From contig JACIYQ010000244.1 of the NCBI GenBank assembly GCA_014359855.1, positions 1 to 60,591 of the forward strand: a stretch of 60,591 nt of DNA, read 5' to 3'. Made by a program: the position numbers and the translations under genes. Shown piece after piece: positions 453 through 43,517 of this stretch. Each line of letters opens with the position of its first letter. Position 1 is the stretch's first letter. Source of the DNA: Parvibaculum sp. (GTDB lineage Bacteria; Pseudomonadota; Alphaproteobacteria; Parvibaculales; Parvibaculaceae). The notes under the pieces are model-generated. The model did no database searches. It was not told where the DNA came from and saw only the letters and a list, made by a program, of their open reading frames with translations.

Positions 453-529
453 CGCGGGGTGGAGCAGCCCGGTAGCTCGTCAGGCTCATAACCTGAAGGT
501 CGCAGGTTCAAATCCTGCCCCCGCAACCA
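453..529 (+). tRNA. initiator tRNA-Met(CAT)
   Basis: CGCGGGGTGGAGCAGCCCGGTAGCTCGTCAGGCTCATAACCTGAAGGTCGCAGGTTCAAATCCTGCCCCCGCAACCA; 77 nt, CAT at 487-489, C1:A72 mismatch, encoded CCA. Confidence 0.97.
488..529 (+). repeat. left att core (tRNA 3' half), 42-bp direct repeat
   Basis: Identical to 43476-43517. Confidence 0.93.
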
Positions 530-532
530 TGA

Positions 533-572
533 AAAGCGCCGCTAACTCAATCAGTTAGCGGCGTTTTGCTTT
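533..572 (+). terminator. hairpin/intrinsic terminator after tRNA
   Basis: CGCCGCTAACT-CAATC-AGTTAGCGGCG followed by TTTTGCTTT. Confidence 0.8.
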
Positions 573-790
573 ATGCCTTCGCGCTCTGCGCTGCCCCTCA
601 GCTACCATATAGCTACCACCCGAAATCGCATTCGGGCGTACATCGCGGCTAGGAAAGCCGGCTTGCGCCAGTTTCGATTCGCCTTCGAGCAACGGCGGGT
701 GCAGCCGAACTCGGCTACGCGTTCCAGTGTAAGCGTCCGATGAAGGACGCTTGGCGGTTACCGTGGGCGGATTGGCGCCATGCAATCCTG

Positions 791-1395
791 TCAGCCCAAA
801 CGGGCAGTCGACAGCCGCGGAATCCACCGCACATAGACAAGCTCGCTAATGAGCTCGATCATTGTCTGGGTGACGACAACGGCAGGCACAAGCGGCACCC
901 CGCCCGGCACCGCGAAGGCGAGCGGGAGGATCACGAGTGAGTTGCGCGTGGCGGCGCTGAATGCCACGGCCCGCATGCCGCCAACGTCGAGGCGGCCGGT
1001 GCGGGCGACGAGCCAGCCGAACACCGGCGCGACAACGGCATAGGCCAAGTAGATTGGCGCTGCGGTCAGCGCCGCGCCCGCAGCCTGTTCGATCTGCGGC
1101 ATGACGGCAGCCAGGACAAGGAAGAGGACGAGGGCCGTTGCCGGCACCGGCAGCAGGCCAAGCGCCATCGATGCACGCTTGCCTGCAGCGGTACGAGCCG
1201 CGCAGAGCTGTAGCGTGCCGCGAGCAGCAGCGGAGCGGCAATCAGCCACAAAAAGGCGCTGATGAAGGGCTCCGGATGGACGAGATCGGAGGCGCCGCTG
1301 CCGAGCAGCAGGTGCAGATAGACGGGCAGCAGCGCCATCTGCAGCACCAGAAGCGCTGGAGTCGCTGCCAGAAGAAGTCTGGCTGCGCTTGATTG
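791..1395 (-). pseudogene. Acr3/bile-acid:sodium symporter-like (arsenic resistance) membrane protein remnant, 5' truncated and frameshifted
   Basis: Hydrophobic sequence split over ORFs 1066..1404 (LLVLQMALLPVYL...PFISAFLWLIAAPLLLA) and 791..1249 (AFSAATRNSLVILPLA...VVVTQTMIELI). Confidence 0.75.
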
Positions 1396-1435
1396 CGACA
1401 TCAAGCCCGAAGCCTCCCGAATTCGAGATGCGCGC

Positions 1436-1804
1436 CTATATCAAGCCGAGTTCCAGCTTGGCCGCATCCGTCATCATCGATTGATCCCAAGGAGGATCGA
1501 AGACCAGATTGACTTTCACGCTTTGCACGCCGTCGACGGCGCTTACTGCATTTTTTGCCCAGGCCATCATTTCGCCGGCGACCGGGCAGCCCGGAGCGGT
1601 CAACGTCATGTCGATTTCGACCGCGCCGAAATCCCGAATGTCGATCCTGTAGATGAGGCCGAGATCAAAAATGTTCAGCGGAATTTCCGGGTCATACACG
1701 GTCCGTAGCGCGGCGGCGACATCGTCCGCCACGGCGCTGCGGTCGGGGGTAGCGGCGGAATGGACCATCGCCATGGCAGGACTGCGGTCGAAAAAGTAGG
1801 TCAT
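1436..1804 (-). CDS. sufT: SUF Fe-S assembly protein SufT (DUF59/PaaD-like)
   Basis: ALRTVYDPEIPLNIFDLGLIY...MTLTAPGCPVAG...VFDPPW; start overlaps sufU stop (ATGA). Confidence 0.85.
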   Translation of the reverse strand: MTYFFDRSPAMAMVHSAATPDRSAVADDVAAALRTVYDPEIPLNIFDLGLIYRIDIRDFGAVEIDMTLTAPGCPVAGEMMAWAKNAVSAVDGVQSVKVNLVFDPPWDQSMMTDAAKLELGLI

Positions 1805-2265
1805 GCTGCGCTGCCCCCTCCTGCCTCTCGGGCACAAGCATCCTCGAACGTATGCCAGGCGAGCGTCGCGCATTTGACGCGCATGGGAAACTGACTGACG
1901 CCCGACATGACCGCGATGCGTTCCATGTCCTCCTCGTCCGCATGCTCGTTCGCCGGCTCGCCCTTGGCGAGATGATAGAAGGCGGCGGCGAGTGAATGTG
2001 CCTCCGTGACTGTCTTGCCCAGAATGAGATCGGTCATCATGGAGGCGGAGGCGATCGAGATCGCGCAGCCCTTGCCCTCGAAGGCGACATCGTCGATCCG
2101 TCCCGATGGATCGACGCGCAGAAAGAGATGTATCCGGTCTCCGCAGAGAGGATTGTGCCCCTGCGCCTCATGGTTCGCATTGGGCAAGGTACCGAAATGA
2201 CGCGGGTTGCGTCCGTGGTCGAGGATCACCTCCTGATAGAGATCGCGCAGGTCGGGATCGATCAT
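1801..2265 (-). CDS. sufU: SufU-type (NifU-N/IscU family) sulfur-transfer/scaffold protein
   Basis: LYQEVILDH, NPLCGD, GCAISIASASMM, RVKCATLAW. Confidence 0.9.
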   Translation of the reverse strand: MIDPDLRDLYQEVILDHGRNPRHFGTLPNANHEAQGHNPLCGDRIHLFLRVDPSGRIDDVAFEGKGCAISIASASMMTDLILGKTVTEAHSLAAAFYHLAKGEPANEHADEEDMERIAVMSGVSQFPMRVKCATLAWHTFEDACAREAGGGSAA

Positions 2266-42337: not shown

Positions 42338-42389
42338 ACCGCGACGCGAACCAGACGAAGCAATACCAGAGAAGCTGAGGAAAATATCA

Positions 42390-42698
42390 ATGTCCATGAT
42401 CACGATTATGCCGTCAGGCAAGACTTTCGAAGCGGCGGAAGGAATGTCCCTGCTGGCGGCGATTCTCGCGGCCGACGAGGCCATGAACCACAAGTGCAAC
42501 GGCAATGCCTCCTGCGGCACGTGCCACGTCTTCGTCCATGAGGGACGAAAGGGCCTCTCCAGGATCGCGCGCGAGGAGAACGAGAAGCTCGACATGATCG
42601 TCGGCGTCGGTTCGAAATCGCGCCTTGCATGTCAGGCGAAAGTGCTCGGTACGGAAGACATCAAGGTCGAACTGCTCGGCTTCGGCTCGGGTCTTTAG
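42390..42698 (+). CDS. [2Fe-2S] ferredoxin (adrenodoxin-like)
   Basis: HKCNGNASCGTCHV...SRLACQ. Confidence 0.88.
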   Translation: MSMITIMPSGKTFEAAEGMSLLAAILAADEAMNHKCNGNASCGTCHVFVHEGRKGLSRIAREENEKLDMIVGVGSKSRLACQAKVLGTEDIKVELLGFGSGL

Positions 42699-42714
42699 AA
42701 ATCAGGAGATGAAT

Positions 42715-42930
42715 ATGGAAACCGACAACGTCATGATTCATGTGCGCTTCGCTCCGAACGGAGAAGTCGTCGAGATCGGCGAGCGCCCGGCGGACGCGAC
42801 GCCCAGGGACTGGTTCAACTGTCTGAGCGACAAGGCCGGAACGCACTACCGGACCTTTGCGGGCGGGCGCGGCGTGTTCAGCCTGACGCGCCAGGAAATC
42901 GATATGCTGAAGGGCGATTTCGCCGCATAG
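42715..42930 (+). CDS. small hypothetical protein
   Basis: AGGAG RBS; IHVRFAPNG...IGERP...WF...GGRGVF. Confidence 0.7.
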   Translation: METDNVMIHVRFAPNGEVVEIGERPADATPRDWFNCLSDKAGTHYRTFAGGRGVFSLTRQEIDMLKGDFAA

Positions 42931-42954
42931 GAACCGGATGGGAAAGGATCACGG

Positions 42955-43475
42955 ATGTTACGATCGATTACGAAACTGGGAAGCGGAATTGTCCTGAATC
43001 TGCTGCTGCTTCTGCCGCTGGCCTCCCATGCCATGCCGGGAGCGTCGCCGTTGCCGTCGCCGCGAATTTCGAGGCTGCGGCCAAGGAGATAGCGCACGCC
43101 TTCAAGGCAAAGACCGGAGACGTGGTGATCTTCAGCGCGGGCTCATCGGGACAGCTCTATATGCAATTCGCCCAGGGCGCGCCCTTCGATATTTTCATGT
43201 CGGCGGATTCTGTCCGTCCGAAGAAGGCAGAAGAGGAGGGGTTGGCGGTTCCCGGCTCACCTATGCAACAGGCAAGCTCGTGCTGTGGGGCGCCGAACCG
43301 GGTGTTGTCGACCGGCGGGGCGACGTACTGCGGCGAGGCCTCTTCATTCATATCGCAATCGCAAATCTGGATGCGGCACCTTATGGCTTCGCGGGGATGG
43401 AAACCCTGAAAAATCTCGGCCTCGACAAGGTGATCGAGCCGGAGATCGTCAAGGGTGCCAGCATCACTCAGATTT
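42955..43475 (+). pseudogene. modA: molybdate-binding protein ModA, frameshifted and truncated at att site
   Basis: Signal peptide, VAVAANF, GSSGQLY..AQGAPFDIFMSAD, TYATGKLVLW, IAIAN...APYG spread over different frames; ends at GASITQ. Confidence 0.85.
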
Positions 43476-43517
43476 ATAACCTGAAGGTCGCAGGTTCAAA
43501 TCCTGCCCCCGCAACCA
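43476..43517 (+). repeat. right att core (duplicate of tRNA-Met 3' half)
   Basis: ATAACCTGAAGGTCGCAGGTTCAAATCCTGCCCCCGCAACCA, identical to 488-529. Confidence 0.93.

Follow-up and report, generated by a model that had tools for sequence, protein, structure and literature searches.

A nitrogen-fixation island behind the initiator tRNA gene of a Parvibaculum genome, with a right end inside modA

The window analyzed here, a stretch of 60,591 nucleotides, is the entire contig C162 (JACIYQ010000244.1) of the Parvibaculum sp. assembly GCA_014359855.1 (hereafter G000; 2.62 Mb, 389 contigs, from an oil-production site). Between an initiator tRNA gene and a second, partial copy of that gene it carries a nitrogen-fixation (nif) island that, judged by its genes, is a complete molybdenum-nitrogenase cluster of the type widespread in free-living Alphaproteobacteria. 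Its right end is not a normal right attachment site (attR) but a hybrid site inside modA. We favor, at a probability of about 0.55, a history in which a tyrosine-integrase element delivered the cluster behind the initiator tRNA and the integrase-bearing right end was then deleted via a tRNA look-alike in modA, leaving a cluster predicted to fix nitrogen at low oxygen. Direct observation covers the gene content, the repeat inside modA, the absence of the cluster from relatives and the design of sister islands, in which an integrase stands beside attR. The host had been guessed to be Parvibaculum in an earlier sequence-only reading, and the GcrA protein of the window bears this out, clustering with a protein named Parvibaculum sp. 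(89.5% identical). PhoR is 94% identical to that of a close relative (G007), and the assembly encodes a CYP153-like P450.

Gene content and foreign origin of the cluster

All six genes of the molybdenum-nitrogenase diazotroph set (nifH, D, K, E, N, and B) are full length and above the NCBIfam equivalog cut-offs. NifH, D, K, E, N, B, A, X, S, and V exceed the curated NCBIfam cut-offs with no stops in their translations, in agreement with the sequence-only reading, which had called the core nif open reading frames (ORFs) uninterrupted. The ligand motifs of the P-cluster and FeMo-cofactor in NifD and NifK and the Fe-protein motifs in NifH are present (with residue roles as we presume them), and the NifD motifs match a solved MoFe protein. 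About 55 genes lie between the repeats, 54 of them on a map without any gap above 430 bp; labels come from Pfam searches of 86 selected ORFs and NCBIfam searches of 43 ORFs of the window. The Pfam scan of the 86 ORFs found no integrase, relaxase, or type IV secretion system gene inside the island, and the six phage-integrase matches in G000 all lie on contigs other than C162, so the reported lack of mobility genes held. The island gave no tblastn match to ORFs from the island loci of 14 relatives. A globin match is likewise lacking on the contig, and glbO is absent from the island. The island and its surroundings contain the following features.

1–324, + strand: 23S rRNA 3′ end (1–114) and 5S rRNA (210–324), left flank (Rfam); the stretch from 5S to tRNA is 91–95% identical to the closest-matching genus relatives
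453–529, + strand: tRNA-Met(CAT), which we take to be of initiator type from its unpaired C1:A72; integration target and left attachment site, attL (ARAGORN, Rfam)
488–529, + strand: left copy of the exact 42-bp repeat (longest exact match between both sites)
533–567, + strand: hairpin like those opening islands at tRNA-fMet in relatives G010 and G061 (fold z −6.0)
812–1404, − strand: acr3-like arsenite exporter gene, a frameshifted fragment in two frames (84% DNA identity to a plasmid "arsenic resistance protein")
1436–7040, − strand: sufB-C-D-S, sufU-like, and sufT-like genes for Fe-S assembly, start approximate (Pfam)
7267–10828, no single strand assigned: TPR protein, YqeB-like protein, bolA, grx4, rhodanese, nitrogenase-associated ArsC-like protein, receiver-domain protein (Pfam/NCBIfam)
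10974–11102, + strand: two NifA upstream motifs and a sigma-54-type −24/−12 motif before nifH (motif scan)
22885, 27286, 33981, and 36365: further −24/−12 motifs (motif scan)
11259–18965, + strand: nifH-D-K-E-N-X, intact; NifE with a C-terminal BFD-like domain (Pfam, NCBIfam, translations)
18980–22909, + strand: DUF269 gene, small ORF, nif ferredoxin III, nifQ, Rieske-domain protein, ORF without label (Pfam/NCBIfam)
22931–27170, + strand: iscA, short nifU-like gene, nifS, nifV, cysE, nifW (Pfam/NCBIfam)
27358–31827, + strand: fixABCX and modD (Pfam/NCBIfam)
31841–33766, + strand: nifA (GAF-AAA-HTH), true start probably further inside (TIGR01817, 737 bits versus a cut-off of 529)
34026–37984, + strand: ferredoxin, LRV protein, an ORF we presume to be nifT-like, SIR2-like protein, nifB (Pfam/NCBIfam)
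38017–42930, + strand: ferredoxin, hesB, TPR protein, LRV-FeS protein, two nifZ, DUF3024 and DUF6129 genes, DegT-like protein, 2Fe-2S ferredoxin, 71-aa ORF (Pfam; ratio of nonsynonymous to synonymous substitution rates, dN/dS, 0.007–0.27 versus locus L197)
42955–43475, + strand: modA, 5′ two-thirds, frameshifted and cut off by the repeat (comparison with L197)
43468–43517, + strand: hybrid right site, in which modA codons TCAGATTT stand against tRNA TCAGGCTC in the alignment and the exact tRNA 3′ copy of 42 bp follows at 43476–43517 (repeat mapping, L197 alignment)
43522–50441, no single strand assigned: second accessory segment outside the island, with an island-type hairpin, emrB fragment, SHOCT protein, and HlyD-rbbA-yhhJ (Pfam/NCBIfam)

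The two terminal genes, the acr3-like gene in two frames and modA both frameshifted and truncated, are broken, as had been read from the sequence before. A motif scan with a presumed consensus, run without a shuffle control, placed sigma-54-type motifs with NifA upstream motifs ahead of five gene blocks.

The cluster is nearly absent from the lineage of its host. With the window NifH as query, G000 alone among 49 genus genomes gave a real match, the remaining matches being weak (near E 1e-5, mostly short N-terminal P-loop stretches). The count for nifB is also 1/49, and nifD occurs in 2 of 73 order genomes and in 0 of the 53 high-quality ones. On these distributions we reject vertical inheritance. 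The second nifD carrier (G036, 57% complete) holds nifD-K-E′ on an unanchored 4.2-kb contig (L161, G036 C69), with no further nif genes found in that genome; its NifK is 67% identical to the window NifK and 95% to that of Rhodoblastus sp., and these genes are either contamination or a separate gain. The window NifK is 89–92% identical to those of Xanthobacter, Azorhizobium, Nitrospirillum, Methylocella, and Methylocystis, and in a quick tree of 82 rows it falls with these genera into a clade of 34 rows (SH-aLRT 99; sister left open). Gene order is largely common to the seven nif regions compared (34–47 of 51 genes shared), and no tRNA-fMet repeat was found in any of the seven; the most syntenic of the clusters (G099) adjoins a tRNA-Arg gene and shows no repeat or integrase within 135 kb. 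By its near-absence from genus and order, its NifK clade, and its shared gene order, the cluster is identified as a known, patchily spread type foreign to Parvibaculales, and the horizontal acquisition proposed earlier is upheld. Among plasmids none covered more than 15% of the 23.5 kb tested, and viral contigs held no FixC relative.

Several observations concern individual genes of the cluster. A FixC 95% identical to that of the window and a close SufU-like protein (P0058, P0105), each on a 51-kb contig, point to a closer relative of the whole island. The YqeB-like gene (7788–8660; TIGR03309, below cut-off) also occurs inside several related nif clusters. The DegT-like protein (41130–42337) has SQPS ahead of a GEGG motif, in place of the pyridoxal phosphate lysine whose position in DegT aminotransferases we presume; its dN/dS of 0.08 indicates strong conservation, and none of the seven related nif regions compared lacks it.

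The hybrid right site and the tRNA hot spot

The exact repeat that brackets the island measures at most 42 bp (488–529 and 43476–43517), the same coordinates as in the sequence-only reading, and extends to 93 nt at 86% because similar strong hairpins follow both copies. A cis-mobilizable element (CIME) would keep both attL and attR; in the window, attL is intact. The right copy falls within the reading frame of modA and begins 3 bp into the anticodon-loop core. The relatives' loci contain 13 partial tRNA copies, of which four were set aside (two cut by contig ends, one with Ns, one a 15-bp match); a partial copy in G018 was missed by the search pattern. The nine informative distal copies are all 45–49 bp long with an intact CTCATAA core, and in 6/9 a tyrosine integrase starts 156–256 bp inside, pointing away (integrase queries taken from the same relatives' loci), which substantiates the claim that tyrosine integrases serve this tRNA site. 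The right copy in the window has 42 bp, TTTATAA against that CTCATAA core, and no adjoining integrase. The JGI locus L197 is 85.5% identical over 36722–43472; the alignment ends at the repeat, where the L197 modA reads on. Ahead of the repeat, the eight bases of modA (TCAGATTT) line up with tRNA TCAGGCTC, and 5/7 free bases match the anticodon arm in register, a match equaled at 394 of 30098 island positions (1.3%). In G114, modB, modC, and a globin gene follow modA (labels from translations). The right repeat is thus misdescribed as an ordinary tRNA-duplication end: it is a hybrid site inside modA, whereas relatives keep the core in 9/9 copies.

Several relatives have second partial tRNA copies on the same contig, and within the genus tRNA-fMet is a hot spot for islands. 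The empty site is seen in G007 and G030, where the tRNA is followed by a block located in G000 from C12:19349 onward, preceded there by another partial tRNA copy of 24–26 bp. The previously predicted empty site, with SDR-phoR directly after the tRNA, proved wrong; SDR-phoR is far from the tRNA in 4/4 relatives with both on one contig. Instead, SDR-phoR is preceded in relatives by a block found on G000 C197, which means that G000, right of the island, has been either rearranged or misjoined. The orientations in 3/4 of these relatives are compatible with one inversion, and a contig from metagenome run X3 (another sample of the same study) bridges 50169–50763 into backbone-type DNA with one difference, which favors a real join at that point. 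Between the right repeat and SDR-phoR lie about 7 kb of further accessory DNA. The identity of 94–99% between 43686–50309 and G007 C33, together with the X3 bridge, links the region right of the repeat to Parvibaculum.

We compared the island with metagenome contigs from four runs over 35500–55400; of 20 runs listed for 36000–45900, four contained at least half of the words. No RNA run was among those listed, which speaks neither for nor against expression. Contigs of X1, an oil production facility run and the possible source, match without differences. Soil runs X2 and X4, which belong to two further studies, contain the island at about 99.3–99.5% identity (e.g. 21 differences in 3144 bp). 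Their contigs extend 41 bases into the repeat, and the modA junction is therefore common to the soil copies. Relative to the soil copies, and among the table rows listed (all but three), three indels fall in 0.5 kb of modA versus one in-frame indel in the other ~7.5 kb compared. The term "immobilised" in the sequence-only reading is consequently unproven, given near-identical copies with the same junction in two soil studies. Coverage in X2 and X4 is low right of 44.1 kb (~0–1.5x over most SDR-pho-pst bins versus 6–29x on most island bins); this drop would fit another host, but holes in a contig set prove nothing and we did not use it as evidence. Loose ends in the soil contigs may come from the tRNAs of other organisms. 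JGI metagenome contigs yielded no match to the junction motif, and 401 class genomes none to the soil loose-end motif.

Further elements surround the hot spot. The accessory segment (43518–50441) also contains a rhodanese-like ORF; its proteins are 94–98% identical to those of Minwuia, and it has different neighborhoods in G007 and G063. At its join to the backbone, an ~80-bp repeat (50541–50627) recurs on at least four other G000 contigs. An AT-richer 19-kb region (G000 C12:1–19348) ends in a 24–26-bp T-loop copy of tRNA-fMet and the native terminator; we take it to be catabolic from ORFs presumed to be acyl-CoA dehydrogenase-, thiolase-, and RND-like, among insertion sequence pieces, and it probably represents the distal end of the array of islands, separated from C162 through rearrangement. 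Large serine recombinase genes on the minus strand stand directly behind tRNA-fMet or its copies in several relatives (L154:440–2161, L150:1653–3371, L149:9564–11243, L155:8454–10118, L158:5180–6832, and L313); some of their frames run into the tRNA 3′ end, and they represent a second element family at this tRNA. In G010, an 8.9-kb island at tRNA-fMet whose only mobility gene is an integrase (L310, G010 C17:16299–25211) bears cbb3-oxidase-like genes and a Crp/Fnr-like regulator (labels from translations), a putative microaerobic-respiration cassette.

Proposed history, predicted function, and rival readings

We propose that a tyrosine-integrase element of the sister-island family inserted at tRNA-fMet, and that its integrase later recombined the true attR with the tRNA look-alike in modA. 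Such a deletion would have removed the modA 3′ end, modB, modC, probably glbO, and the integrase itself. The remnant would be an element of the cis-mobilizable type, mobile only with a helper or a neighboring element. Expression would depend on NifA and the sigma-54 of the host, electrons would pass through FixABCX, molybdate would probably enter through the host sulfate ABC transporter, and oxygen would probably be removed by a host cbb3 oxidase. The cluster is predicted to support nitrogen fixation, probably given low oxygen and enough molybdate. All nine genes compared with L197 have dN/dS values of 0.007–0.27. Both rpoN and ccoN occur in 5/5 relatives; the rpoN neighborhood ends at a G000 contig end, and rpoN probably lies in an assembly gap. 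Although modA is present in 42 of the 48 other genus genomes, it was not found in the three closest relatives (G007, G017, and G063), and the native modABC of G000 was cleanly deleted, C324 (8851–8859) joining both flanks of the G031 modABC locus directly. This Parvibaculum clade seems to live without a high-affinity molybdate transporter. Sulfate transporters can take up molybdate in other bacteria, and G000 has cysT/cysW of a sulfate ABC system. The earlier description of the module as nearly self-contained was overstated: modB, modC, and glbO are missing, the host modABC is deleted, and sigma-54 must come from the host.

A number of results weigh against this history and function. The assembly is 71.7% complete in 389 contigs (contamination 1.28%), and the left junction is given here as assembled. 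Among the contigs listed for the four runs, none spans the whole right 42-bp copy with both flanks. The in-register match of modA to the tRNA is post hoc and modest. Neither a cognate integrase (best matches 24–31% identity) nor VirB4 was found in the G000 assembly. Composition fails to mark the island, which is ordinary for the genome (45th–83rd percentile; GC 61.6% versus 63.2%). The dN/dS values, obtained against an 85% relative, reflect long-term history and not selection in Parvibaculum. In the G000 assembly (72%), rpoN and ccoN were not found, and no contig-end neighbor was found for ccoN. High-affinity molybdate uptake and glbO are missing, and loss of glbO lowers free-living nitrogenase activity in Bradyrhizobium according to a preprint; ModABC is described as essential in bacteroids in a review (PMC4965479).

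Three other explanations account for parts of these observations. It is unlikely, in our view, that a second tRNA-fMet-targeting element inserted at a secondary site in modA and has its left end in the repeat at 43476, with the true right end of the nif island (modA 3′ part, modBC, integrase, and attR) lying, or having lain, beyond. Integration at a look-alike site would leave an identical junction, the DNA farther right is rearranged compared with that of relatives, and 28% of the genome was not recovered; yet the assembly contains no modA 3′ part and no modB over the cut-off. The hairpin after the repeat resembles the left, island-opening one, but tandem islands at tRNA-fMet are common in relatives and explain it without a secondary insertion. 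We give still less credence to a genuine island that, lacking ModABC and GlbO and under unadapted host regulation, is silent or marginal, fixing little or no nitrogen and beginning to decay from its ends. Both terminal genes are indeed broken, the native modABC is deleted at C324 and modA not found in the three closest relatives, and a phenotype is reported for a glbO mutant. Against decay, however, all core and accessory nif ORFs are intact and have promoter motifs, and since divergence from the soil copies indels have gathered mainly in modA. G000 also has a sulfate ABC system, a type of transporter that can serve for molybdate in other bacteria.

An assembly chimera, in which another alphaproteobacterial nif region was joined to Parvibaculum DNA via the conserved tRNA-fMet, strikes us as improbable. 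The contig begins in rRNA and its left junction comes from the assembly, many members of the community share the tRNA 3′ half (its bin has a depth of 300), a related strain of higher abundance is present in the source run, and the order from tRNA to SDR-phoR is unlike that of relatives. Two wrong joins would be required, however, the right neighbor is 94–99% identical to G007 DNA, and contamination is 1.28%. Difference-free contigs in the possible source run are also similar in depth (39 inside versus 32–46 to the right, with the backbone allele at 51019 at ~40), which is a weak, non-independent hint against a chimera.

Significance and relation to known systems

Ideas about how whole nif clusters pass between free-living bacteria come mostly from trees, since clear ends are rarely preserved in the known nif islands. 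Here the ends are exact to the base, close relatives show the empty site, sister islands point to the likely integrase family, and near-identical copies exist elsewhere; direct tests of excision, of dependence on a helper, and of transfer are therefore possible. It extends predicted diazotrophy to Parvibaculum, a hydrocarbon-associated genus of carbon-rich, nitrogen-poor habitat in which fixation could limit oil degradation, and raises the question whether a nif cluster works without ModABC and GlbO. Tentatively, and with more doubt than belief, we suggest that this may be the first complete, working nitrogen-fixation system in Parvibaculales, an integrase-less 43-kb cassette with a right recombination site built from modA that helper integrases still move, at a near-universal initiator tRNA, among unrelated alphaproteobacteria of oil-field and soil communities. 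If such a portable cassette exists, it would be a natural one-step route to diazotrophy. The literature covered on Parvibaculum and nitrogen fixation, with passages of PMC12711144, PMC11208148, and PMC12117797, and on nif islands at tRNA-Met contains no report of a nif-bearing Parvibaculum; subscription journals and supplements lay outside this scope, and supplements may list Parvibaculales nif genomes. PMC12117797 mentions Parvibaculales briefly, with citations to other papers, as one of the orders with known fixers.

In free-living Bradyrhizobium, the nif island (bioRxiv 10.1101/2021.02.03.429501; bioRxiv 10.64898/2026.05.28.728359) is likewise a horizontally moved block (~45–50 kb), with suf at one end, nif, fixABCX, and nifV, and mod genes at the far end; the window also holds the suf cluster, nifV, and fixABCX in one block. 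There, nifDKENX and nifHQ are separate operons, nifA lies at a boundary, and glbO and a mod cluster mark the downstream boundary, whereas here nifHDKENX is contiguous, nifA is internal, and a broken modA stands alone without glbO. The island in the window, in a Parvibaculum host, ends in tRNA-fMet repeats; the words "tRNA" and "integrase" are absent from the text of bioRxiv 10.1101/2021.02.03.429501. The nitrogen-fixation island of Pseudomonas stutzeri (PMC4174501) resembles ours as a complete nif set without mobility genes in a mostly non-fixing genus, with near-identical distant copies; it differs in being gammaproteobacterial and lying between cobS and gshP with short repeats, in contrast to the tRNA attachment site and hybrid right site here. 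Laterally acquired nif genes in the oil-associated, hydrocarbon-degrading genus Thalassolituus (bioRxiv 10.64898/2026.08.28.747955) are similarly patchy and include a transferred nifHDKENB, but occur in 25/74 genomes and mostly lack clear boundaries, as opposed to 1/49 and base-exact ends.

Among mobile elements, the ICEs (integrative and conjugative elements) and IMEs (integrative and mobilizable elements) of Mesorhizobium (PMC8627217) are tyrosine-integrase islands of Alphaproteobacteria that also target tRNA-Met, but carry an integrase and a relaxase; the tRNA-Met ICEs are reported to lack symbiosis genes, and none of the IMEs is reported to combine complete nod and nif sets. Islands with an origin of transfer (oriT) but without a relaxase have also been described. 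CIMEs in tandem islands (PMC5704250) come closer, having lost integration and transfer genes, kept att-like ends, and come to lie next to another segment, in tandem, at the 3′ end of a tRNA. In our case, the right site is a modA/tRNA hybrid with a broken core and not a retained attR, the cargo is a whole nif system, and the element is known from its sequence. The island is neither an ICE nor an IME and resembles a CIME except for its hybrid right site. It is a genuine nif island whose kind is known and whose host lineage is new; its ends are unusually clear, and its boundary is unusual.

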